From IMG/VR virus record IMGVR_UViG_2880389630_000006: a stretch of 41,015 bases of DNA; one strand, given 5' to 3'. Positions 5,828 to 35,386 of the stretch are shown here, piece after piece (within the stretch, counting starts at the first letter, position 1; every line of letters starts with the position of its first letter). The position numbers and the translations under genes were made by a program. The stretch is from a virus (Duplodnaviria; Heunggongvirae; Uroviricota; Caudoviricetes). The notes below the pieces were generated by a model. That model saw nothing but the letters and a program-made list of their open reading frames with translations, searched no databases and was not told the origin of the DNA.

Positions 5828-5930
5828 GTTAAATCTCCAGATAGTCGCAGCACCCGTTGCGCCGCATATCTGGTTATTCTATTACCTGGAAAACCACATA
5901 TGGATAGAAAGGCTGTAAATACGAATAGAT

Positions 5931-6310: not shown

Positions 6311-6327
6311 TTTACCTTTGCGGTAAA
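6311..6327. promoter_or_regulatory. Operator-like palindrome TTTACC-TTTGC-GGTAAA
   Basis: Same 6-5-6 inverted-repeat family, in the leader between the small paralog and the Bro-N antirepressor gene. Confidence 0.45.
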
Positions 6328-6592
6328 TTTACATCGCACTCCTCTTGTGCCATAGTAATCAGGCACTGGCAAAATCCAGTGCCGGGATTGGCGTCCCGGG
6401 TTACTACAGAGGCACATATGCCGCATAAGCGGTTTTTTTATGTGTAAAGCGCACCTATTCTATGGTGGGCTGTGTGGGGGCACCGAAAGGTGCGCCGGGT
6501 CCTTTGTAGCCGGTTACGCCAACCCTGCACAGTTCACCACCAACCGATTGGCGTCGGTAGTGGTGATTAACCTAACTACAAAGGTGATCACT

Positions 6593-7279
6593 ATGACTGC
6601 TAACGTAACCCCATCTGTTTTTCATTTTGAATCAGAAGCAACCATTCGAGCCATTGTTATTGATGGAAATCCTTGGTTTGTTGCCAAAGACGTTATTAAA
6701 GCTCTTCAACTGACAAACCCCACTATGTCAATAAAATCTCTTGATGATGATGAAAGGGCTAAATTTAACTTAGGCCGTCAAGGCGAAACCAATATTATCA
6801 ACGAGTCAGGCCTCTACACACTGATCCTCCGCTGCCGCGACGCAGTGACACCAGGCACTATCCCCTACCGCTTTCGTAAATGGGTTACAGGTGAGGTTCT
6901 TCCTCAGATCCGCCGCACCGGAAGTTACATTAAAAACTCGCTCCCGCAGGAAGAACGCATAAAGATGGTTGCCGACCAGGTAGCCAACGCCACAGCATCA
7001 GCAGTGATGCAGGCAATGAAGATAGAGAACAAAACCTACAGCGCCCCACTGAAGCCCGGCTACCGCAGTCTGATTCATTCTCCGTCTGGTGTTCTCGGCC
7101 TGACGGAGAACTCACTGCTGATGAATCTGCTGAACCAGTTACAGGACGACGGGCACGACGTATCGGGTGCGGCGGCAGAGCTGACCACCATGTTTTGCTA
7201 CATCGTCGGTGTGAGCAAATGCCTGCGTGATATCCAGACGCACGCGGAGTACATCAACGACAAGGCAGGGTTCTTCTGA
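6593..7279 (+). CDS. Phage antirepressor, Bro-N domain family
   Basis: ATG at 6593 with SD aaggtga; N-terminus (IRAIVIDGNPWFVAKDVIKALQL...ESGLYTLILRCRDAVTPGTIPYRFRKWVTGEVLPQIRRTGSY) is Bro-N/antirepressor-like. Confidence 0.8.
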   Translation: MTANVTPSVFHFESEATIRAIVIDGNPWFVAKDVIKALQLTNPTMSIKSLDDDERAKFNLGRQGETNIINESGLYTLILRCRDAVTPGTIPYRFRKWVTGEVLPQIRRTGSYIKNSLPQEERIKMVADQVANATASAVMQAMKIENKTYSAPLKPGYRSLIHSPSGVLGLTENSLLMNLLNQLQDDGHDVSGAAAELTTMFCYIVGVSKCLRDIQTHAEYINDKAGFF

Positions 7280-22535: not shown

Positions 22536-22828
22536 TCCTGTTCACTGGCCTCTTTGGCCATCTTCAAATACTGTTCAGGGCAATGCGCCATAACGCGCTG
22601 AAACAGTTCCAGCGCCAGATTGCGTTGCCCCTCATTAAATGCCATTGCCATAGCGTCCATCGGTGAGATAGCGGAAAACACACGGCCTTTCTCCAGCACC
22701 GACCAGACAACGCGACGCCCCTGTTCACTGCTCATGACAAAGCGAATGTCATCAATTTCACGCTGTGCCATGTCACGTTGCTTACGGGCGTTTTCTTCTT
22801 TCAGTTGATCATCTTCGTAATCTGTCAT
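22532..22828 (-). CDS. Small head-assembly-associated protein
   Basis: 98 aa ORF overlapping portal stop and scaffold start (translational coupling). Confidence 0.45.
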   Translation of the reverse strand: MTDYEDDQLKEENARKQRDMAQREIDDIRFVMSSEQGRRVVWSVLEKGRVFSAISPMDAMAMAFNEGQRNLALELFQRVMAHCPEQYLKMAKEASEQE

Positions 22829-24504
22829 TGTGATTGCCCACCCTGACCACTAACTGCATTCGCCATAGCTGACAAAACACTCGGATCCGAAGTTTTAGCT
22901 TCGCTTAGCGTCTTGGCGCCCTGTGCCGCCGCCATTCCCATCGCCATCATTTGTTGCTGCTGTTGCTGCTGTGCCCGTTGCTGGCGAGCCTGCTCAACCT
23001 GTTCCTGCGGAACAATGACGGTTGGAGACACTCCGGACATATCAGCGAATGCATCGATCGCCTGATCAACATTGAGTTTGTCGAGAGCTTCTGGTTTCGC
23101 TTGCGCAAGTTGACCAATGAAGTTGACCGTAGACGCCAGACTGGACAGGCCGATAGACTTCTGCGCCTGAGCCATGACGGAAATGTATTCGACCTTCAGG
23201 GGCATACCTTCCATCGCGTCAGGCGGTGGCGGCAGCATGTTTTTACGCACCATCATCGAGAAAGCGCGGTCAATGAGAGGATTAAGACATTCGTCGTTCA
23301 GACGCTCCAGAACCGGCCCCAACATCAGAAGTTTTTCTTCTTTCATTTCGATCACCGCTTCAACAGGCATCGAGCGGGTATTGATGTTCTGCAACATCAT
23401 GAACAGATCGACAAAGTAGGCGCTGTTAATGATTTGACGAGTGTCCTGAATGTCTGCCACCAAATCTGCTGTACTGGGGTTAACCAGATAAGCAGGCCTG
23501 AAGCCATCCTGACCAGTAATCTGATCGATATACGTGATGTCGCCAGGAAGAAGGGAGGCGCGCTGATTCTTGAGGGAAGTCGGAGCAACCATCGGCGGAT
23601 TGGTGGCTTTATCAATCAACTGCGACTTGCGCTTCTGGAGAAGCTGCAATGCCTTAACAGGTCCAAGCGCCAGCATACCCGGGCATGATGATCCATAAAC
23701 ATCTTCGCCGTTAACTTCCCAGCGCGGAGCCATAATTGGAAACTCATCGAATCCGGACTCACGCAACAACTTGTCGTTATCTCCACCAACCTCGTAATAA
23801 ACCGATTTGAATGGCTTGTTCTTGCTATCCAGCTTCGATGTATCGCGGTCAATGTTCGGGTAAACCGAATGCATCACTTCGATCCACTTCTCGTAGGTGC
23901 CGCTTTCCCACATGCTTTTTACGGATTCGCTGACGTTATTTAGCCCGAACTCCTGAACAAGCTGACGAACAGTCATAGAGAACTTGCGAAAACAGGTGTC
24001 AACACTGCCACGAGGTGAGTTAGCCAGGTAGTAACTGCCTATCGGGAATGGCATTGTGCGAATGATGTCCTCGTCATCCTCCAGCACTGCCATTGCACCA
24101 GTGCTGTATGTGCCGAGGCTTCCGTATAACTGCGGAAGAGACTGGTAGAGATTCGAATTATTGAACATATCGTTCATGCGGTTCTGAACTGCCTCAAGCC
24201 ACAACTTAACAGGGCCATAATCCATCATTTCAGGATCTGGCGTAGCCAGGCGAAACCACGGACGCGCAGGGCTTGTGATGCCTGACATCATGCCGCTGGC
24301 GAGAGTGCGCGCCGCCATAGTCCCGGTCGAATCAATAATGCGTGTATTGCGTCGATCGTTACGGTTGACCTCAGAAGTCAGAAAGCGGGAACCACGCGGG
24401 TTGATGTAATCACTCAACTCGCGCCAGTGCGGCTCGAACGACTGACGCTCGCTTTCAAGTTGTGCGAACTGTTTGTTCAATCGCTCTTTAGTTGTTTCCG
24501 CCAT
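22825..24504 (-). CDS. Portal protein
   Basis: 559 aa, first large gene after terminase; Gln-rich C-terminal tail (QQRAQQQQQQQMMAMGMAAAQ) typical of podovirus portals. Confidence 0.7.
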   Translation of the reverse strand: MAETTKERLNKQFAQLESERQSFEPHWRELSDYINPRGSRFLTSEVNRNDRRNTRIIDSTGTMAARTLASGMMSGITSPARPWFRLATPDPEMMDYGPVKLWLEAVQNRMNDMFNNSNLYQSLPQLYGSLGTYSTGAMAVLEDDEDIIRTMPFPIGSYYLANSPRGSVDTCFRKFSMTVRQLVQEFGLNNVSESVKSMWESGTYEKWIEVMHSVYPNIDRDTSKLDSKNKPFKSVYYEVGGDNDKLLRESGFDEFPIMAPRWEVNGEDVYGSSCPGMLALGPVKALQLLQKRKSQLIDKATNPPMVAPTSLKNQRASLLPGDITYIDQITGQDGFRPAYLVNPSTADLVADIQDTRQIINSAYFVDLFMMLQNINTRSMPVEAVIEMKEEKLLMLGPVLERLNDECLNPLIDRAFSMMVRKNMLPPPPDAMEGMPLKVEYISVMAQAQKSIGLSSLASTVNFIGQLAQAKPEALDKLNVDQAIDAFADMSGVSPTVIVPQEQVEQARQQRAQQQQQQQMMAMGMAAAQGAKTLSEAKTSDPSVLSAMANAVSGQGGQSQ

Positions 24505-24518
24505 TTCAATGACTCCGG

Positions 24519-24725
24519 TTACTGACCAAGCAGCGTTTTACCGCTGGTATTAGCGGTTGATGTGTCGCCCTGAGAACCGGTAAGCAGCGTAGAACTACGA
24601 CCAGCAGCAGCGCGACGGCGACGTGTTTCTTCGTCGCGGGCATCAACAACGGCGGCATCCTGCTCCTGTGGTGCTGCCTGAACTTCTGGTGTTGCAGGCA
24701 CTGATGGTGAGCTACCCATGCACAT
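24519..24725 (-). CDS. Small ORF upstream of portal
   Basis: 68 aa with GGAG SD 9 nt upstream; Ala/Thr/Arg-rich; may be spurious. Confidence 0.3.
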   Translation of the reverse strand: MCMGSSPSVPATPEVQAAPQEQDAAVVDARDEETRRRRAAAGRSSTLLTGSQGDTSTANTSGKTLLGQ

Positions 24726-24793
24726 ATCAATGACTCCGTACGCAATTAAATCATTACCAATTTAACCACATATGATTTATTTATCGTAGAATG

Positions 24794-24831
24794 TTGACAT
24801 TTAACGCGTGAATTATTACCTTTCAGGTAAC
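24794..24831 (+). promoter_or_regulatory. Putative promoter (TTGACA -35) with overlapping operator ATTACC-TTTCA-GGTAAC upstream of the tRNA
   Basis: TTGACA at 24794-24799; the 16-bp operator core at 24815-24830 is identical to the site at 5931. The -10 element is ambiguous. Confidence 0.4.
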
Positions 24832-25152
24832 TAAAGAGCTCATTCTGGTTACTAACCTGACTGGCTTGTCGTTAAATTAAACAGGTGGAGTGAGCTTTTA
24901 TTTTGAGCAGTACGGCGTATGGCACATGCGCCGATAGCGGTCTGGATACGTTTAAGGGGCACCCTCCCTTGCTCGGGCAAACGAACCAGGTAGCCGGAAT
25001 GTGCAAGTCGAGCGGTTTTATTCCGCGCACGGGGATTCACCATCCCGGCGATTCGGTGTGACGCCTCGGAAGAGACGAGGGTACAACGATGAGAGCATTT
25101 ATGGAGCCGCGACAAAGTGTGGCGCCTTAACAGGCTAAGTGCTCTCAGCGTT

Positions 25153-25229
25153 GTGGCATTAGCTCAGTCGGACAGAGCAACCGCCTTCTAAGCGGTTGGT
25201 CGCAGGTTCGAATCCTGCATGCCACGCCA
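25153..25229 (+). tRNA. tRNA-Arg (anticodon UCU)
   Basis: Hand-folded cloverleaf: 7-bp acceptor stem GTGGCAT/ATGCCAC, D-arm gctc-agtcggaca-gagc, anticodon stem accgc/gcggt with loop CT-TCT-AA, T-arm gcagg-TTCGAAT-cctgc, discriminator G plus encoded CCA. Resembles but is not identical to enterobacterial argU. Confidence 0.85.
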
Positions 25230-25427
25230 GAATCACGCCTAAGGACCGTGATGCCAGAAGTTCCAGGGGCTTGGCGGTGATGGTTTCCCTTGAAGGACTA
25301 TCACCGCCCTTTTTACAGCAGGACGCCATTGCGATGACTTCATGCTGTAAACCCGTACAGCCACGGAAGGCATAACTCATTGCTTCCAGTTCGCCCGGTT
25401 CGCCGGGCATTTTTTTAAGGTGAGATT

Positions 25428-25799
25428 ATGAACGACAAGCAAATCGAAAAAGAAATCGTTGAGAAAGGCAAAACGGCACCGCGCGTTACGCCAGACCATA
25501 TCGAAGGCATTATTGCTCAGGAGGCATATTTCACAGCAGAAGATGGTGCCTTTGGCAAAGCCATAAAAGCGAAACATACTGGCGGAGAGGTAAACTACCA
25601 GCCGCACGAATCACTTTCTCTGCTGACGTTCTGCGTCCTGGTGCTGCGCAACGGCTTCACCGTCACCGGAGAGAGCGCCTGTGCAAGCCCGGAAAACTTT
25701 GATGCAGAAATTGGTCGGAAGATTGCCCGGCAGAATGCTGTAAACAAAATCTGGATGCTCGAAGGTTACTTGCTGAAGCAGAAGCTAAGCGAGCAATAA
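25428..25799 (+). CDS. Conserved phage protein, Gp49-like (tentative)
   Basis: 123 aa on the strand opposite the flanking terminase/portal genes; family assignment from memory of the Gp49-type signature (LTFCVLVLRNGFTVTGES), unverified. Confidence 0.45.
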   Translation: MNDKQIEKEIVEKGKTAPRVTPDHIEGIIAQEAYFTAEDGAFGKAIKAKHTGGEVNYQPHESLSLLTFCVLVLRNGFTVTGESACASPENFDAEIGRKIARQNAVNKIWMLEGYLLKQKLSEQ

Positions 25800-25802
25800 C
25801 AC

Positions 25803-25814
25803 CGTGACATGTCA
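25803..25814. repeat. 12-bp perfect palindrome GTGACATGTCAC, copy 2 of 3
   Basis: Exact sequence, between the stop codon at 25797-25799 and the terminator hairpin. Confidence 0.9.
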
Positions 25815-25846
25815 CAAACAGCCAGCCGATGAGCTGGCTTTGTTTT
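25815..25846 (+). terminator. Rho-independent terminator
   Basis: Stem agccagc/gctggct with loop cgatga followed by tttgtttt. Confidence 0.7.
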
Positions 25847-25889
25847 ATCCTCATCAGAGGATATCAACGACATTATCCCCACCAGCGGA

Positions 25890-27365
25890 TTAAGCATAGG
25901 GATCGTAATCTGTGATGGCCTTGCCTTGCTGGTTCTGCTGCCCGGGAATTCGCAGACGCTTCGACACAGGGAACGCAAACGTCAGCAGTAGCGCATCGCC
26001 TTTACCAGGCGAACGCCCAAGCCGCTCCTTGATATCTTCCTTCGGTTCGATAACGATTTTACCGTCCACTCGAACTTTGTACTCTGCCGCCGACAGATCG
26101 TCCGCTGTTTCCTGGTCATCCAGCATCCCGCCCAGCCTCAGCCATGTCTTGCATGAGTTGAACATCTCCCCACGCTTGTTGAGCATCTGCTGGTCAGTAG
26201 ACGCGCCACCGAACGGAACAAGTTGCCATGTACGACCCCAGCCGTCACCGATTGACTTCAAACCGGTTCCGTAACCGAAGTCGATGAACACCGCGTCAGC
26301 CTGATACTGGTCTTCAAAGTCAGCGATACGCTTCGCCATAATCAGATCGTCGGTAGTCTTGTTGCCAGTCCACAGCACCTTACTGTGTAGCCCCTGCCGC
26401 AGGTATATCACAGCGTCATCAACGCCGGAGTATGCCGGGTCAACGCCGATTATCACCGGAGCATGTGCAACCTGCGCAGCGGTGACCACCCGTTTCATTG
26501 CCTCGTCAGTAAGTCCGGTAGGGATAAACTGCAATTCAGATGCATCCGGGAATATGCCGCGCACACGGATTTTAACGAAGTCGCTGTCTTCCCCGTAGTC
26601 ATCAACCCATTTCTGCAACTGCTGTTTGTTAGTGCCTTCCACCGTCCGGCTGTCAATCTGCGCAGTTTTCCAGCGGTGTTTATATTTGCGGAAACATTCG
26701 CGGAAACGCCCGGTGTTACGTGTAGGGTTTCCGAACGCCACCCAGATAATCTCAGTGTCTTCGTCCGTAAGCGCACCCTCAGCAACTTCCCACACCAGAT
26801 CCGCAATGTTCGACGCTTCATCGAATACCACGATGATGCGTTTGCGCTCGTTGTGTAGTCCGGCGAATGCCTCAGTGTTGTGCTCAGACCAGGGTATTGC
26901 GTCAGCTCGCCACCGCTTGTCGTGTCCAGGATCATTGCTGTACATCGCGGTAGCGGTACAGGTAAACCAGTCTTTCGTGATAGCAAGGTTCGACCACTTG
27001 ATAATTTCCGGCCAGGTCTTCGTTCGTAGCTGGTTGTCGGTGTTGGCGGTCACCACAACCTTACAATCCTCGCAAGTGGACATGCCCCAGTTGATCAGCA
27101 TTGAGATGAATGCGGATTTACCAATACCGTGACCCGAAGCGCGTGCCAGCATAAGCGGCTGATAGCGCGTCTCTGGATTCTGCAGGTGATCACGTATCTC
27201 TCGGAACGCATCAGCCTGCCACTGACGTGGACCGGTGGCATGTGCCAGTTCAGTCCCATCTTCCCCCCACGGGAACGCATAGAGGGCATAGCCAAGCGGA
27301 TCGTGAGTGAACCCTGCAATATCCTCGATTAACTGCTCTTCAGGAGATAACGCTGTATCTGTCAC
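25890..27365 (-). CDS. Terminase large subunit
   Basis: 491 aa; P-loop-like ARASGHGIGKSAF in the N-terminal ATPase region, acidic nuclease-type motifs in the C-terminal half; follows the small-subunit gene with ATGA overlap. Confidence 0.8.
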   Translation of the reverse strand: MTDTALSPEEQLIEDIAGFTHDPLGYALYAFPWGEDGTELAHATGPRQWQADAFREIRDHLQNPETRYQPLMLARASGHGIGKSAFISMLINWGMSTCEDCKVVVTANTDNQLRTKTWPEIIKWSNLAITKDWFTCTATAMYSNDPGHDKRWRADAIPWSEHNTEAFAGLHNERKRIIVVFDEASNIADLVWEVAEGALTDEDTEIIWVAFGNPTRNTGRFRECFRKYKHRWKTAQIDSRTVEGTNKQQLQKWVDDYGEDSDFVKIRVRGIFPDASELQFIPTGLTDEAMKRVVTAAQVAHAPVIIGVDPAYSGVDDAVIYLRQGLHSKVLWTGNKTTDDLIMAKRIADFEDQYQADAVFIDFGYGTGLKSIGDGWGRTWQLVPFGGASTDQQMLNKRGEMFNSCKTWLRLGGMLDDQETADDLSAAEYKVRVDGKIVIEPKEDIKERLGRSPGKGDALLLTFAFPVSKRLRIPGQQNQQGKAITDYDPYA

Positions 27366-27994
27366 TGATTACCATCCTGACGTTCTTTGAGTCGCTTCCT
27401 GGCTGCTGCTATGCGATCAGCAATTGTCACATTCACATTAACATCCAGACGTTCTTTGAATGCGTTGACATCAACATGCTTACCAATCAGCTCAAGGTTC
27501 TTCACCTTGTCAGGCCATTTCACCTTCTTCAGGATATGCTCGACATCCTCAACAGAGAGATCCGCCTCGCCATTCTCTTTTTGCAGGGAAGCCTGGGTTG
27601 TCTTGATGGTAGCGATATCCATAGCACTGAGAGAGGTACGCCAGACCTTCGGCCATTCAGCGATCGGCTTCATCCCGCCGTCATCGTTCAGTATATCCAG
27701 CACGTCCATCTGGTCGATCTCCACCAGGCGCATGAGAACGTAATCAGCACTGACGCGCATTCGTTTGTTGCGCTCCTCCATCAACTCGGCAATCCGTTTT
27801 TGAATGCGTTCATCGCGCATCATGACACTTGCTTTAACTGCCGCTGTATTTGGGGAGAATCCTGCGTTAATCGCTGCCTGAGTCTGGTTTTCAGGCGTTT
27901 TGATGTATGACTGGCAATAAGCCTCCTGCATTGCTGTTAGTGGCTTAAATTGCGTTGATTTACGTTTATAGGTTTTAGGTTCAGCAGGCATCAT
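27362..27994 (-). CDS. Terminase small subunit
   Basis: Internal ATG at 27994/27991 (MMPAEPK...); the track start is TTG and its extension runs through a tandem DNA repeat, so it is rejected. Confidence 0.6.
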   Translation of the reverse strand: MMPAEPKTYKRKSTQFKPLTAMQEAYCQSYIKTPENQTQAAINAGFSPNTAAVKASVMMRDERIQKRIAELMEERNKRMRVSADYVLMRLVEIDQMDVLDILNDDGGMKPIAEWPKVWRTSLSAMDIATIKTTQASLQKENGEADLSVEDVEHILKKVKWPDKVKNLELIGKHVDVNAFKERLDVNVNVTIADRIAAARKRLKERQDGNQ

Positions 27995-28068
27995 AACCAC
28001 CGTGGTAATAGTTACCGTTGTGGTAATAGTACCATGCAAAATAAAGCCGCCATAGTTGGCGGCAGTAT

Positions 28069-28281
28069 TCAAAGTCCATCAAATTCATCGTAAAAACTCT
28101 CGTCAAGATACCATTCCCATTTACCGCGAATGAAAATTACATCCTCGCCGCAAGGGTGCTGACTGTCGATAACTATATCCCTCCTGGCGCAACCATACTT
28201 ATTCATGAGAAATTTAACCTCTTTCGGAAAATTTGCTGAGTTATCTCTCATATCTTCAAGGTCGTAGCGTATTTTTGGCAT
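28069..28281 (-). CDS. Hypothetical small protein
   Basis: ATG at 28281 (MPKIRYDL...); AT-rich; the track's GTG start at 28302 lies inside the 12-bp palindrome. Confidence 0.4.
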   Translation of the reverse strand: MPKIRYDLEDMRDNSANFPKEVKFLMNKYGCARRDIVIDSQHPCGEDVIFIRGKWEWYLDESFYDEFDGL

Positions 28282-28290
28282 AACACCTTC

Positions 28291-28302
28291 GTGACATGTC
28301 AC
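28291..28302. repeat. 12-bp perfect palindrome GTGACATGTCAC, copy 3 of 3
   Basis: Exact sequence, overlapping the stop codon of the 28299-28640 gene. Confidence 0.9.
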
Positions 28303-28640
28303 ACTATTAATTTCGTTTCATGCCAGCCTTTGGTCACCCAGCATTGCGAGTCACCATTACACGGGCATGAATTAACTGGAACTCTCTCGCCGCACTTACC
28401 GCAACGTTTTCTGCTGATCGATTTTATACGCCCGCGCACGCGTGCATCATCCTGGCGGATCAGTAACGCTATATACTCACCAAATTCGTAAGGCGCACGC
28501 CCGGGGCGACGCGTGGCACAGTTACGCTCCAGCATTTCAATTTCCTGAGCATCAAGCACAATTTCCAGCTTACGCACACCAGATGCAGCTTGTCTGGCTC
28601 TCTGAGCGGCTTTGCGCTCTGCTGCTGATTTAGCCATCAA
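28299..28640 (-). CDS. Small basic protein with C-terminal Cys-rich (zinc-ribbon-like) segment
   Basis: 113 aa; RKRCGKCGERVPVNSCPCNGDSQCW cysteine cluster; basic N-terminus. Confidence 0.45.
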   Translation of the reverse strand: MMAKSAAERKAAQRARQAASGVRKLEIVLDAQEIEMLERNCATRRPGRAPYEFGEYIALLIRQDDARVRGRIKSISRKRCGKCGERVPVNSCPCNGDSQCWVTKGWHETKLIV

Positions 28641-28672
28641 TATTTACCTTTATCGCGAACACATTTACCGGT

Positions 28673-28915
28673 TTATCTCCTTTGCATAGCACGTAATTTT
28701 TTCAGATGGTTCTCCTGTTCTGTTTCAGCCAGGATCTGGTGATATTCTCTGTGATCAATGTGTTCGAATAAATTATTGAATTTTCTGATGCACACTCTTC
28801 CAGGATAGCCATCCATCCTCTTGAAGAATACTGAGTGATCAGTACTACGAATGATTTTTACTGGATAGCCAGCGCTATCGGTGTATATCTGACCACGTTG
28901 AATCAGAGAGAACAT
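28673..28915 (-). CDS. Hypothetical small phage protein
   Basis: 80 aa ORF, AT-rich. Confidence 0.4.
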   Translation of the reverse strand: MFSLIQRGQIYTDSAGYPVKIIRSTDHSVFFKRMDGYPGRVCIRKFNNLFEHIDHREYHQILAETEQENHLKKLRAMQRR

Positions 28916-28981
28916 TCGTTTATCCCCAGATAAAAATATAGCAATACCAATTACATAAAATACTTCAGGCCAAGCATCATT

Positions 28982-29515
28982 TCACCCCTGCGGCGGTTCT
29001 GGTAGAGGCATCCAATTGATTACATCGCATTTAGGGATGCTGATATCATCACCAAGCCACCCTTGACCTTCAGACCAGCATTGCACGTAATACCCGTATT
29101 CTGTGTTCACTACGCACCACTGCGCGTCGTTCGGCATTCGATCACTACAGCTTATCCAACCATCCGGAGTTACCGGAGTTGGTCCATCGAATTCGGGCAT
29201 GTCAGGACCTTTTCTGATAGCTTTAGCCAGCTCCAGCGGGTCATCGTAAAGCCAGTCGCCAGTTTGTGGGTGATTTGCTTCTGCAAGCTGCGCAGCCCAT
29301 TCAAGACCATCTTTTTGACCTTGGAGATAATCAAGTGGCAACTCTTCATGATTACTTGCAGGTTCGGCACTATCAGCTTCGCGCCGCTTCTGTAGCTCTG
29401 CTGCCATTGCTCTCACGACTTCAACTGGTGCCCTTGCAGCAAACTCTATGTTGGTGATCAGCTCATTAAGATATTGCTCGCCTGGATACTGTTTCTTATC
29501 GGTTATAGTGGTCAT
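28982..29515 (-). CDS. DUF551-like phage protein (tentative)
   Basis: ATG at 29515 with SD AAGGAGAG; C-terminal W/C-rich segment (WISCSDRMP...WMPLPEPP) resembles the DUF551 signature. Confidence 0.45.
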   Translation of the reverse strand: MTTITDKKQYPGEQYLNELITNIEFAARAPVEVVRAMAAELQKRREADSAEPASNHEELPLDYLQGQKDGLEWAAQLAEANHPQTGDWLYDDPLELAKAIRKGPDMPEFDGPTPVTPDGWISCSDRMPNDAQWCVVNTEYGYYVQCWSEGQGWLGDDISIPKCDVINWMPLPEPPQG

Positions 29516-29516
29516 A

Positions 29517-29924
29517 TCACTCTCCTTTCCCATGAAGCATAGCGGCGCGGCAGGCGTTCCATATTTCGGCAGCAATATCGCGCTCGCTATCGGTTAATTT
29601 GTACGTGGAAACATAGCCAGAGAGCATTTCTACGTTTTCCGGAGTTGCTTCTTCCGGCACTACCGGCGCTGGCGGGGCGGCAAATAGATATCCGCCAAAG
29701 TCAGGAAGCTCTCCAATGGCCTGTACGAACTTTTGTTTGCCTACGTCAACTCCTAATGGGTAATGAGCTATAATCTTTGCCACCGGCTCTGCTTCCAGCG
29801 ATAACAGTGCAATTCGTGCCAGTTCTTCCGCTTCTTCTGCTGGCAGTACAACGTTGCTACCCGGTCCGTATGTTTCGCGCCACTGCTTGATTGTCAGCAG
29901 TCGCCCTTTGGTAATAGTGATCAT
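29517..29924 (-). CDS. Hypothetical phage protein
   Basis: 135 aa ORF coupled to its neighbours. Confidence 0.45.
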   Translation of the reverse strand: MITITKGRLLTIKQWRETYGPGSNVVLPAEEAEELARIALLSLEAEPVAKIIAHYPLGVDVGKQKFVQAIGELPDFGGYLFAAPPAPVVPEEATPENVEMLSGYVSTYKLTDSERDIAAEIWNACRAAMLHGKGE

Positions 29925-30436
29925 GCCGCGTTTCCTTCTTTCTTATTAACAATCACACCGTCATATATTTCATTAAGGTGCCCTCTCAACTCCATGCGCC
30001 TTAATGCAGATAACATGTAATCGCATTCAACCTGCTTATTCCCAGTAAATGGCTTATCGTCAGGATTACCCCAACAGCAATTACCCCTGGGCCATCCATG
30101 TACTTTCCGTACTCTTCCGTTAACAACGTGAAGTAATCCCCAGCCGGGAGGTAAATCCTCAACTGAAATAATTTCCGGCTCACTAATAAAGAATCGCCAG
30201 TCGCCCATGCCAAGTGAGGGATTTTTACGGAAACGCTTTTTTCTATCTGCCAACAAGTCAGCACGAGAACACTTCGCCTCTATCAGGCATGATGCTGAAT
30301 TTCTGAATCCCATAGCATCTGGCTGTTCTCCGGTACTGGTTACAGCAACAAAGCGGTCATGAAAGCAAACCTTGAACCCGTTGCGCTTAAGGAACTTGTA
30401 CGCAATCTGACAGAGTTCGTGGTGTGTTAACGCCAT
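29921..30436 (-). CDS. PD-(D/E)XK nuclease-like protein (tentative)
   Basis: ATG at 30436 with SD AAGGAGAG; D...EAK motif (PDAMGF...CLIEAKCS) consistent with a restriction-endonuclease-like fold. Confidence 0.4.
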   Translation of the reverse strand: MALTHHELCQIAYKFLKRNGFKVCFHDRFVAVTSTGEQPDAMGFRNSASCLIEAKCSRADLLADRKKRFRKNPSLGMGDWRFFISEPEIISVEDLPPGWGLLHVVNGRVRKVHGWPRGNCCWGNPDDKPFTGNKQVECDYMLSALRRMELRGHLNEIYDGVIVNKKEGNAA

Positions 30437-32354: not shown

Positions 32355-32399
32355 TAAAAACCACATAAGACACGAAATCAATAGATTTTAGAATATTTT

Positions 32400-34801: not shown

Positions 34802-35386
34802 ATGAAAAGTATCCAGGACGTCCGCAGGCAAAATCTCAACGACTTGATCGACCGTGAATTCAATGGTGTTCAGACGCGGATGGCAGAAAAACTTGGAACT
34901 CAGGCAAATCTGGTAAACCGCTGGGCTCTTGGCAAGAAGGTTATCGGCGACCAGGTTGCGCGAAAAATTGAAGCTGCCGCCAATAAACCCCGTAACTGGC
35001 TTGATATCGATCGCTCGCTTTCTCAGGAAGGTTTTCAGCCTGTCGGCCCAAGCGACATTGGTCAGCTGGCAGCTCACAACCTGGAACGCTGGATGAGTGA
35101 AAGCCGCGACCTTTCAACTCAGGGAAAACTTCACCGCGCATCCGGCGTCGCCCAGGTGACAATCAGCCGCCTGTTAAACAATGAGGTCAGCGTTTCCATT
35201 TCCACCCTGGAGAATGTTGCATCCGCATTCGGGCGTCACGGATATGAACTACTGATTCACCCGCACGACCCTGCGACTATCAACTATGACCGCTCACGCT
35301 ACGCATTGTTACCCGAAACCGAGAAAGCAAAGATCGAAAGTTACATTGAATTTGTCATCAACCAGAACGAAAAAAACAAACAATAA
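34802..35386 (+). CDS. Prophage repressor, tandem HTH-XRE domains, no S24 peptidase domain
   Basis: Two HTH-like segments (GVQTRMAEKLGTQANLVNRW and ASGVAQVTISRLLNNEVSVSISTLENVASAF); no Ala-Gly/Ser-Lys autocleavage motifs; divergent to the Cro-like gene. Confidence 0.65.
   Translation: MKSIQDVRRQNLNDLIDREFNGVQTRMAEKLGTQANLVNRWALGKKVIGDQVARKIEAAANKPRNWLDIDRSLSQEGFQPVGPSDIGQLAAHNLERWMSESRDLSTQGKLHRASGVAQVTISRLLNNEVSVSISTLENVASAFGRHGYELLIHPHDPATINYDRSRYALLPETEKAKIESYIEFVINQNEKNKQ

Follow-up and report, generated by a model that had tools for sequence, protein, structure and literature searches.

Why does a prophage carry a small transcription unit that runs against its own packaging and head genes, and under what conditions would this unit be expressed? 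We addressed this question in a 41,015-nucleotide stretch of phage DNA (hereafter the window), which is a prophage of the phiV10/epsilon15-like type (Uetakevirus) with ~96% identity to phage phiV10. A preliminary description had placed a unit of opposite orientation, equipped with a promoter and operator of its own, in the interval between terminase and portal. Our analysis confirms this arrangement: the parts of the unit are on the plus strand, and the two flanking genes, TerL (25890-27365) and portal (22825-24504; PF12236), are on the minus strand. The features of the interval are as follows.

24519-24725, minus strand: gp3-like gene (68 aa), between the portal gene and the plus-strand unit
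24746-24782, no strand assigned: invariant 37-bp block TTAAAT(C/T)ATTACCAATTTAACCACATATGATTTATTT, between the gp3 start and the plus-strand -35
24794-24822, plus strand: putative sigma-70 promoter (-35 TTGACA at 24794-24799, 17-nt spacer, -10 TACCTT at 24817-24822)
24816-24830, no strand assigned: candidate operator palindrome TTACCTTTCAGGTAA for the prophage repressor (Rep), overlapping the -10 and the predicted transcription start
24831-25152, plus strand: structured leader RNA of ~320 nt, from covariation
24907-25084, plus strand: core of the leader
24913-24933, plus strand: leader hairpin H1
within the leader, plus strand: H2, which encloses a variable hairpin
within the leader, plus strand: H3, a hairpin with a UUCACCA loop
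25064-25080, plus strand: leader hairpin H4, CCUCG-GAAGAGA-CGAGG
25085-25097 with 25140-25152, plus strand: leader long stem of 13 bp with a hypervariable tip (25098-25139), ending 1 nt before the tRNA
25153-25229, plus strand: tRNA-Arg(UCU) with encoded CCA, from ARAGORN and the Rfam tRNA model
25232-25252, plus strand: 3' trailer hairpin AUCACG-CCUAAGGAC-CGUGAU, read from the sequence
25273-25314, plus strand: terminator T1 (hairpin 25273-25308 with a 14-bp stem, then CTTTTT), from a terminator scan
25365-25416, plus strand: hairpin 25365-25387 followed by terminator T2 (stem 25393-25408, T-run 25410-25416), which abuts the ribosome-binding site
25417-25424, plus strand: Shine-Dalgarno sequence AAGGTGAG
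25428-25799, plus strand: Acb4-family (PF13876) gene, 123 aa, from Pfam
25820-25839, plus strand: terminator T3, separating the cargo gene from the terL 3' end

As the best explanation for the locus as a whole, which we consider moderately probable, we propose that it is a plus-strand accessory transcription unit of a Uetakevirus prophage, probably repressor-controlled, that comprises a leader, a tRNA, and an Acb4-family cargo gene. In the lysogen, Rep bound to the palindrome over the -10 of TTGACA-17-TACCTT would keep the unit off. Upon infection or antirepressor-mediated induction, host RNA polymerase would start near 24830 and produce a transcript whose 5' part is the ~320-nt leader, with its last helix (a structure drawn from covariation) abutting the tRNA. 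The tRNA-Arg(UCU), which is canonical, would be freed by the normal tRNA-processing enzymes and would add AGA decoding capacity. The majority of transcripts would stop at T1 or T2, and a read-through fraction, arising from leakiness or an antitermination step, would allow translation of the 123-aa protein, which by homology would assemble into an oligomeric sponge and soak up the cyclic oligonucleotides through which CBASS defence signals. Lastly, T3 would end the unit and protect terL against transcription in the antisense direction.

In themselves, the “Gp49 family” gene and the tRNA are routine features, with annotations already present in hundreds of genomes. For instance, the unit of tRNA-Arg and Gp49 family protein is in the RefSeq annotation of 222 of 5,426 complete E. 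coli genomes, and phiV10, O157 typing phages 9 and 10, SPN9TCW, SPC32H, and RefSeq E. coli prophages have ~96-100% identical DNA at the locus. As here, records of the phiV10 group place a tRNA-Arg and a hypothetical or “Gp49 family” protein in the terminase-portal interval; the leader RNA and the anti-CBASS role are unannotated in them, and the operator is annotated in epsilon15 only. An exception is the RefSeq record of phiV10, where the tRNA is missing and an antisense ORF, PhiV10p04, stands in its place. We judge this minus-strand ORF (25159-25410; PHROG 4647), antisense to the tRNA and T1/T2, to be spurious.

We find that the cargo gene, previously described only as a Gp49-like “conserved phage protein”, is indeed a PF13876 gene and can now be placed in the Acb4 anti-CBASS sponge family. 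The 123-aa protein matches PF13876 (Phage_gp49_66) over all 82 profile positions (119.5 bits with a cut-off of 27; E = 8.9e-35), and PF13876 is the Acb4 family (PMC11722364, PMC12265669). In a phmmer comparison the protein also matches 9E4W_A (E = 0.006), a chain of SPO1 Acb4, the anti-CBASS 4 sponge of a Bacillus phage (PDB 9E4W; Chang et al., PMC11722364). An AF2 model of the protein (pLDDT 84.8) has strands at residues 29-36, 66-73, and 78-84 plus helices, and shows the three-stranded antiparallel sheet, N-terminal helices, and long C-terminal helical extension of the Acb4 protomer. Using this model as a Foldseek query, the best 13 matches are all 9E4W chains (probability 1.00; target-normalised TM 0.56-0.72). 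Based on sequence similarity and predicted structure, the protein is assigned to the Acb4 anti-CBASS sponge family. Its relationship to SPO1 Acb4, which has the same Pfam family and a matching predicted fold, is a distant one (~22% identity, with a 25-residue N-terminal extension here), and a point against our best explanation is that the SPO1 ligand contacts are only partly conserved. Among the contacts that we compared (K36, F48, E49, V56, Y57, F62, N63, I66, T70, and K81, of which K36 and K81 fall outside the aligned stretch), equivalents of F48, F62, and I66 are kept, whereas the guanine-reading E49 is changed to T, V56 to C, Y57 to A, N63 to D, and T70 to I. Acb4 sponges are further characterized by a homotetramer that takes up 3'3'-cGAMP or related signals and so blocks CBASS. 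Acb4 homologues from phages of Gram-negative hosts show altered specificity and bind cAA too (PMC11722364).

The position that holds this gene is, from sequence comparison, an accessory-gene recombination hot spot. Homology among relatives stops at T2 and resumes at T3, and cargo replacements always span exactly T2-T3. In a census of 93 unique slots, ~40 carry Acb4-like cargo, 6 carry Tad2-like cargo (PF11195; E-values of 1e-23 to 4e-26), and others carry several unknown families. Since Acb4 and Tad2, both known sponge families, share the T2-T3 slot with at least 8 uncharacterised cargo families, this well-delimited slot is a good starting point in the search for new genes of anti-defence or defence. 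Some of the alternative cargo is AT-rich and has its own TATAAT promoter.

How the cargo would be expressed is less straightforward. The preliminary description had noted a terminator in the unit; there is one, but in fact there are three terminator-like hairpins, two of them between the tRNA and the ORF. T1 has compensating changes in three stem variants, and its stem base and TTTTTACA tail are conserved in Uetakevirus, lambdoid, and other contexts. In T2, the stem GCCCGG/CCGGGC becomes GCCCAC/GTGGGC in relatives, a compensatory change. Neither a promoter scan nor inspection by eye found a promoter between T1 and the ORF at 25428-25799. Two good terminators between tRNA and ORF leave cargo expression unexplained, and this counts against our best explanation.

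We find that the 320 nt upstream of the tRNA are a conserved structured RNA and not a spacer. In an alignment of the leader (A2) with 49 base pairs, 99.3% of cells are paired, and 7 pairs are changed on both sides compared to 3.8±0.8 in shuffled alignments (the observed value was reached in 0 of 500) and 0-2 in slid controls. A second alignment (A3), of 17 cores from several contexts, has compensated changes in 11 of 28 pairs against 4.4±1.3 (0 of 500). Invariant parts include single-stranded segments such as GGAAUGUGCAAG and GGCGAU.CGGUGUGAC as well as the UCACCA and GAAGAGA loops. A small ORF over the leader, with the peptide-like stretch DSPSWRYGVTPRKRRG, was rejected: its starts, frame extents, and C-termini vary among relatives, and its nucleotides form covarying helices. 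In Rfam, the region 24831-25152 has no family match (the tRNA alone passes the threshold, and everything else has E >1), and permissive thresholds likewise give nothing for the leader or for the tRNA-like RNAs described below. In other phages, RNase P-processed leader RNAs are known from P1/P7 (C4) and P4 (CI), and HK022 has the put antiterminator RNA. Like these RNAs, the leader is a structured RNA in the 5' part of a phage transcript, here predicted to be early and repressor-controlled; sequence and Rfam comparisons show no similarity, and no antisense target of the leader was found within the window. A C4-family RNA is present elsewhere in the window, at 6458-6544.

The leader core does not occur in this context only. 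In the C1-controlled ban operon of P1, it lies directly after trnI. In the lambdoid phage mEp460, a whole chassis of leader core, long stem, tRNA-shaped RNA, trailer hairpin, and T1 is found between a PL-like operator/promoter and the first ORF, and since a T1-like terminator precedes that ORF, the early-left genes of mEp460 would need read-through. Outside the Uetakevirus terminase-portal context, the chassis is also found at 7 loci in enterobacterial genomes. An RNA that is tRNA-shaped but non-canonical stands in for the tRNA at 24 of the 93 slots, and the trailer hairpin at 25232-25252 is retained behind both kinds of occupant. A first alternative to our best explanation is that the RNA chassis is primary and tRNA-Arg is one interchangeable occupant, in which case the leader could be an RNase P/RNase E processing platform, a nut/put-like element for antitermination past T1/T2, or a ligand-sensing or regulatory RNA. 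The covariation in both alignments, the invariant segments and loops, and the spread of the core to the P1 ban operon, mEp460, and the 7 loci outside the Uetakevirus context all favor this reading. However, epsilon15-type slots are without core, stem, and tRNA and retain H1, T1, T2, and cargo; since these slots keep both terminators and the cargo without the core, read-through of T1/T2 does not require it. In addition, a short-word blastn search of the leader against HK022 24000-30100 (the put region) returned only chance matches of 9-13 nt, and antisense matches of the leader within the window are at chance level (10 matches of 11 nt, with ~11.7 expected). A literature search on P1 ban-operon RNA found nothing relevant. 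On balance we consider a primary role for the chassis rather unlikely.

A further proposal on the leader itself, which we put forward tentatively and hold at somewhat less than an even chance, is that it represents a structured RNA family, widespread in phages and not yet described, with a dedicated function. Such a family would be defined by a ~170-nt core, invariant junction and loop nucleotides, and a long stem with a hypervariable tip. It would travel as a mobile cassette that also includes a conserved terminator and either a tRNA or a hypervariable RNA of tRNA shape, and it would sit in early transcripts under repressor control in Uetakevirus, P1-like, and lambdoid phages, three groups of temperate phage that are unrelated to each other. 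Its candidate functions would be the processing of tRNA-shaped effector RNAs, the formation of a terminator-resistant polymerase, or the sensing of a signal, and the tRNA-shaped variants could serve in regulation or, at the RNA level, in counter-defence. The leader RNA and these variants are a candidate new class of phage RNA, common to P1 and Stx2c-converting phages.

We next consider the tRNA, which in our preferred account serves decoding. ARAGORN calls a single tRNA in the whole window, tRNA-Arg(tct) at 25153-25229 on the plus strand, and the Rfam tRNA model scores it at 73.3 bits against a gathering score of 29, so the fold predicted earlier is accepted by both tools. The cloverleaf comprises an acceptor stem of 7 bp, the D, anticodon, and T arms, and an anticodon loop of 7 nt in which positions 34-36 read UCU. 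The earlier characterization as argU-like with different stem sequences also holds: compared with E. coli argU, the tRNA has 14 differences, which are compensated in the acceptor and anticodon stems and otherwise comprise D-loop and variable-loop bases, and it retains the argU anticodon loop CUUCUAA and A20. The identity elements for ArgRS are A20, C35, U36, and a purine discriminator base. In the alignment with argU, these are found in the D-loop AGUCGGACA, the anticodon loop CUUCUAA, and the 3' end G-CCA. The tRNA is present in 69 of the 93 unique slots and is at least 95% conserved across phages of E. coli, Salmonella, and Klebsiella, with flanks 75-82% identical, an indirect indication that it may be expressed, processed, and aminoacylated.

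The suggestion that this tRNA serves rare codons receives some support, but is unproven. AGA is used at 6.8 per 1000 codons in the window and in phiV10 compared to 4.2 per 1000 in epsilon15, which is without this tRNA, a comparison of two phage types with different hosts; host usage is ~2 per 1000. The AGA codons cluster in early, tail, and ejection-protein genes, and none are found in the genes for portal, major capsid protein, and terminase. That epsilon15-type phages manage without the tRNA counts against our best explanation. There are precedents for such tRNAs: the P1 genes trnA, trnT, and trnI of the ban operon encode rare-codon tRNAs in a phage operon under prophage-repressor control, as predicted here, and ileZ-argN-argO of Stx phages are tRNA genes in a repressor-controlled or late operon. 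In contrast to these operons, here a single tRNA lies in a small self-contained opposite-strand unit in the packaging/head module, coupled to an anti-defence gene.

This coupling suggests a second alternative, compatible with our best explanation, in which the tRNA would act mainly in counter-defence: being nuclease-resistant, it would replace the host tRNA-Arg(UCU) that an anticodon nuclease cuts, or serve as a decoy for it. In addition to its place in the same transcription unit as anti-defence sponges, every variable stem pair differs from argU while the anticodon loop is identical, and the non-canonical tRNA-shaped RNAs at the tRNA position (24 of 93 slots) have hypervariable centres, an arms-race-like pattern. 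A precedent also exists in phage T5, whose tRNAs allow infection to proceed despite PARIS and retron systems that cleave tRNAs. On the other side, we are not aware of any defence nuclease in these hosts with specificity for tRNA-Arg(UCU), colicin D excepted, and the higher AGA usage of the tRNA-bearing phages fits the simpler codon explanation. We therefore regard counter-defence as the main role of the tRNA as doubtful.

When the unit is expressed depends on its promoter. The arrangement TTGAC-N18-TACCTT is found at fixed spacing in 90 of the 93 unique related slots, and a promoter scan gave no other plus-strand candidate upstream of the tRNA. However, a simple scan did not call TTGACA-17-TACCTT, and the -10 fits the consensus at only 3 of 6 positions, which weighs against our best explanation. 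The palindrome TTACCTTTCAGGTAA over this -10 is one of 13 copies of TTACC-N5-GGTAA in the window, where 0.66 are expected by chance. The remaining sites are in the repressor/cro and ant/C4 regions and upstream of two genes, terS (27994-28026) and the tailspike gene (5932). The geometry at 24816-24830 recurs at four other promoters, where the first T of TTACC is the last base of the -10 hexamer. The GenBank record of epsilon15, our source for this comparison, marks these sites as bound by the repressor, with “protein_bind: repressor” at the homologous site, and the window encodes a repressor with an HTH_3 domain (34802-35386). From this sequence evidence, the plus-strand unit is probably controlled by the prophage repressor. 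Because the predicted Rep operator overlaps the -10, the unit is predicted to be off in lysogens and on early. An Acb4-type anti-CBASS gene under predicted prophage-repressor control in a compact early unit would be a simple model for the timing of counter-defence in temperate phages.

Because this operator is symmetric, it could regulate the minus-strand gp3/portal operon instead of, or besides, the plus-strand unit, a further point against our best explanation. In a third alternative, the gp3-portal-head operon on the minus strand would be the target of both the invariant block and the operator at 24816-24830, while the plus-strand unit would be driven otherwise. The block at 24746-24782 is identical in 8 of 8 aligned phages from E. 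coli, Salmonella, and Klebsiella hosts, with flanks 75-82% identical, and an exact 30-mer from it is found at >120 IMG/VR loci. It shares the motif CATATGTGGTT-N5-GGTAAT with 5880-5902 on the minus strand, and the motif is thus upstream of both gp3 and the tailspike gene. The preliminary description had suspected a signal for the portal operon at 24730-24790, and the block and shared motif fit this suspicion; the block may be a promoter or activator site for the minus-strand gp3/portal operon, or alternatively a UP-like element for the plus-strand promoter. Operators also lie upstream of terS and the tailspike gene, both late minus-strand genes, and the epsilon15 authors placed their operator annotation on the late-gene strand. 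Nevertheless, the homology of distant relatives breaks off precisely where the operator ends on its right side, which leaves no conserved minus-strand promoter upstream of it. The plus-strand TTGAC is conserved at a fixed 17-nt spacing from TACCTT, and before the tRNA the plus strand offers no alternative promoter candidate. Exclusive minus-strand control is therefore improbable in our view, and plus- and minus-strand promoters may share the operator. A search of genome contigs with the 68-aa gp3 protein as query found no related loci.

Returning to the plus-strand unit, which the preliminary description had called a moron, we very much doubt that it is a classical one, transcribed from the repressed prophage and of benefit to the lysogen, for instance as a source of a rare tRNA for the host. 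Its promoter and terminators, opposite strand, and presence/absence polymorphism among related phages, together with the moron-typical AT-rich cargo noted above, fit the anatomy of a moron, but the -10 lies inside a predicted repressor operator that recurs 13 times at lytic promoters, and an anti-CBASS sponge serves the infecting phage rather than the lysogen. Morons of lambdoid phages, reportedly described by Juhala et al. in 2000, are likewise promoter-gene-terminator inserts between two conserved genes that vary among relatives. The moron anatomy of the unit thus stands, while the sequence argues against the hallmark of expression from a repressed prophage, which is not expected from a promoter that carries a predicted prophage-repressor operator.

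At the distal end of the unit, T3 is annotated in phiV10 as the terminator of terL, and its tail on the minus strand is weak (GTTTGTG).

Across 24500-25900 the window shares 95.9% identity with Escherichia phage phiV10 and with O157 typing phages 9 and 10; with Salmonella phage epsilon15 the identity is about 81% and covers only part of the region. Based on these identities, we assign the window to a phiV10/epsilon15-like prophage of the genus Uetakevirus. Late genes are encoded on the minus strand in the order terS, terL, slot, gp3-like gene, portal, head, tail and tailspike, where the slot is the plus-strand unit inserted between terminase and portal.

Genes flanking the slot
~28036 down to 27362, minus strand, terS
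27365-25890, minus strand, terL
24725-24519, minus strand, gp3-like gene, 68 aa
24504-22825, minus strand, portal gene (PF12236)

The unit is real, as the preliminary description stated, and is already known at the level of annotation. The slot is listed as “tRNA-Arg” and “Gp49 family protein” in KP869107, SPN9TCW, SPC32H and RefSeq prophages, and at least 80% of the 1.14-kb unit is present in 222 of 5,426 complete E. coli genomes. Our analysis adds a predicted repressor control, an Acb4 assignment, a cargo hot spot, and a conserved leader RNA with tRNA-shaped variants. In the phiV10 RefSeq record the tRNA lacks annotation and an antisense ORF, PhiV10p04, stands in its place. We regard the corresponding 83-aa ORF of the window (25159-25410, minus strand; PHROG 4647), antisense to the tRNA and to terminators T1 and T2, as spurious; PHROG 4647 looks like an annotation artefact turned database family.

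Pairwise comparison of the window with seven relatives uncovers fixed module borders. The stretch 24512-24833 is kept in all seven, T1 (25273-25314) through T2 (25365-25416 region) is kept regardless of what comes next, and cargo is swapped precisely from T2 to T3 (25820-25839). There are three terminator-like hairpins where a single terminator had been described. Using an exact 30-mer of an invariant 37-bp block (24746-24782), we retrieved more than 120 IMG/VR loci, giving 93 unique slots, of which 69 carry tRNA-Arg(tct) and 24 carry none. The cargo is Acb4-like in about 40 slots, Tad2-like in 6 (in three architectures), and in 10 a 140-aa family beginning MKT.DMLA (L014, L033, L034 and others). 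Proteins of 200-296 aa with membrane and coiled-coil segments (L102, L009, L040, L075, L086, L088, L094) are encoded as complete ORFs in at least 6 slots, and about 9 more slots of 1534 bp each appear to hold this family, as checked in one. Their gene is AT-rich (37% GC); in L102 (slot bases 685-1534), the one sequence inspected, it is preceded by its own TATAAT and the operator-like TTACCTTAAAGGTAT. This cargo could be a superinfection-exclusion or defence moron. Several smaller uncharacterised families also occupy the slot, and some slots are empty. Further cargo (L007, L022, L012, L016, L004) comprises a TL-2011b type of 115 aa and three families with lengths of 146, 90 and 88 aa; the 88-aa family bears the motif GYESYSPAEAFESGY. 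SPN9TCW carries a 138-aa membrane protein. The 140-, 115-, 146-, 90- and 88-aa families and the SPN9TCW protein have no Pfam match, and we consider these T2-T3 families candidate new anti-defence genes.

In epsilon15, some 330 bp surrounding the tRNA are missing. Short direct repeats, GCGGTCTGGAT (24938-24948) and GCGGTGATGGT (25275-25285), bracket this segment. The sequence at the epsilon15 junction is GCGGTCCGGATGGGTTCCC, which is what recombination between the repeats, removing or adding the RNA cassette, would be expected to leave.

The window's own cargo, noted earlier as a conserved Gp49-like phage gene, is ORF 25428-25799, which matches PF13876 (E = 8.9e-35). The founder of this family is the Bacillus phage SPO1 protein Acb4, which forms a tetrameric sponge for 3'3'-cGAMP and related CBASS signals (PMC11722364); PF13876 and PF11195 correspond to Acb4 and Tad2, respectively (PMC12265669). 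The window protein matches 9E4W_A by sequence over residues 67-108 (E = 0.006), and the best 13 PDB matches to its AF2 model (pLDDT 84.8) are 9E4W chains only (probability 1.00, target-normalised TM <=0.72). Based on the Pfam, sequence and predicted-fold matches, we judge Acb4 family membership to be solid. The hydrophobic ligand contacts F48, F62 and I66 of SPO1 Acb4 are kept in the window protein; E49, Y57 and T70 are not.

The 320 nt from operator to tRNA are conserved at the nucleotide level across E. coli, Salmonella and Klebsiella phages, and reading frames across them have no consistent starts or stops among relatives. RNAalifold of 15 diverse leaders gives 49 pairs with 99.3% of cells paired. 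Two-sided changes occur in 7 pairs; shuffled alignments give 3.8+-0.8 (0/500 as high as observed) and slid controls 0-2. Three compensated pairs lie in a 13-bp stem (25085-25097 with 25140-25152) that encloses a hypervariable tip, and the tRNA begins one base past its end. G-U pairs show that the leader RNA is read from the plus strand. For 17 diverse copies of the leader core (~24907-25085), 11 of 28 pairs are compensated (4.4+-1.3 shuffled, 0/500; slid controls 0-3), and no variation is seen in two loops or in several single-stranded stretches. Rfam has no match for the leader.

The 24 tRNA-less slots carry RNAs of 130-260 nt at the tRNA position. These open with GTGGTGAA or GTGGTTAGCTCAG, close with a T-arm-like hairpin followed by CACCAC, and have hypervariable centres and cloverleaf-like multibranch predicted folds; neither ARAGORN nor Rfam calls them. 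A trailer hairpin and T1 follow tRNA and tRNA-shaped occupants alike. The position of the leader would suit a sensor, a processing platform or a nut/put-like antitermination site. We found no similarity to the HK022 put region and no antisense targets within the window. An essential role in passage through T1 and T2 is argued against by epsilon15-type slots, which lack core, stem and tRNA yet still have leader hairpin H1 (24913-24933), T1, T2 and cargo.

The core also occurs outside the genus: in P1, P7, D6, SJ46 and RCS47, and in lambdoid phages such as mEp460, cdtI, 2H10 and Stx2c-converting phages. Its place in P1 is immediately past trnI and ahead of ban, within the C1-controlled ban operon. 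In mEp460, the core comes after a PL-like operator/promoter beside the repressor gene; then follow a tRNA-like RNA, a terminator resembling T1 and the first ORF. A TTGCAT-17-TATCTT promoter a short way upstream of this core (mEp460 locus L149, 1900-1960) is overlapped by two operator-like 15-bp palindromes, TTGCATATCTCGCAA and TTGCATAATGCGCAA. This puts the RNA chassis where the early-left transcript begins, the position of nutL and N in lambda. Fifteen enterobacterial reference genomes contain the core, 7 of them outside a terminase-portal context. One Phytobacter ursingii genome (L135, L145) has three copies; past two of these ARAGORN calls an unusual 79-nt “tRNA-Ile(aat)” ~470 nt downstream, and more GAAGAGA-type hairpins follow the cores.

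Upstream of the leader, the palindrome TTACCTTTCAGGTAA (24816-24830) is one of 13 TTACC-N5-GGTAA matches in the window, with 0.66 expected by chance. Others flank the repressor gene and its divergent promoter, precede the isrK/C4/antirepressor region, or lie between early genes, and sites also occur close ahead of terS and the tailspike gene.

Palindromes and regulatory features
TTACC-N5-GGTAA starts: 5932, 6312, 7345, 24816, 27994, 28012, 32339, 32401, 34347, 34684, 34732, 35444, 35506
34802-35386, repressor gene (HTH_3)
6312-6326, Rep operator
6363-6439, isrK-family RNA (74.7 bits)
6458-6544, C4 antisense RNA (79.5 bits)
6440-7279, putative antirepressor ORF (Bro-N domain)

Homologous sites in the epsilon15 record carry a repressor-binding annotation. 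According to the literature, the Rep tetramer of phage SPC32H, whose genome has this slot as well, binds to palindromic DNA and is taken apart by an antirepressor. In four other promoters, the last base of the -10 hexamer is the first T of TTACC. On the plus strand at 24816, TTGACA is followed after 17 nt by TACCTT; this -10 lies inside the operator, and the TTGAC/TACCTT spacing is kept in 90 of the 93 slots. We infer a plus-strand promoter here, which a simple promoter scan did not call. Since its -10 lies within the Rep operator, the unit is predicted to be repressed in lysogens and should be derepressed early. The 13 sites, spread over early, late, tailspike and antirepressor promoters, suggest that the repressor acts directly on many operons, like that of P1, rather than through one lambda-like switch region. 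Region 6312-7279 is a P1-like module of the immI type.

The sole tRNA that ARAGORN finds in the window is the expected tRNA-Arg(tct) (25153-25229, plus strand; Rfam tRNA model, 73.3 bits), with CCA encoded. It is argU-like with changed stems, as proposed: 14 differences separate it from E. coli argU (taken from beside the DLP12 intD gene), 6 at compensated positions of the acceptor stem, 4 at compensated positions of the anticodon stem, and the remainder in the D-loop and variable loop. The two tRNAs agree throughout the anticodon loop and at A20. In the window, as in phiV10, AGA accounts for 6.8 per 1000 codons, against 4.2 in epsilon15, where the tRNA is absent; the E. coli value is ~2. AGA codons are common in the window's early, tail, ejection-protein and tailspike genes, and its portal, protease, major capsid protein and terminase genes have none. 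In what is a thin comparison, this fits a supplementing tRNA made early.

Finally, we considered how the portal operon is expressed across an opposing unit. In a direct reading of the minus strand, neither T1 nor T2 has a T-tail and that of T3 is weak, which makes read-through from terL toward the portal operon possible. A portal-operon signal had been suspected near 24730-24790. The motif CATATGTGGTT-N5-GGTAAT is common to 24752-24774 (minus strand), upstream of gp3/portal, and 5880-5902 (minus strand), upstream of the tailspike gene; the former copy falls within the invariant block adjoining the gp3 start. This shared motif supports the suspicion, short of proof; the block is a plausible candidate late promoter or activator site. 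A one-mismatch copy of the motif lies at 32359-32369.
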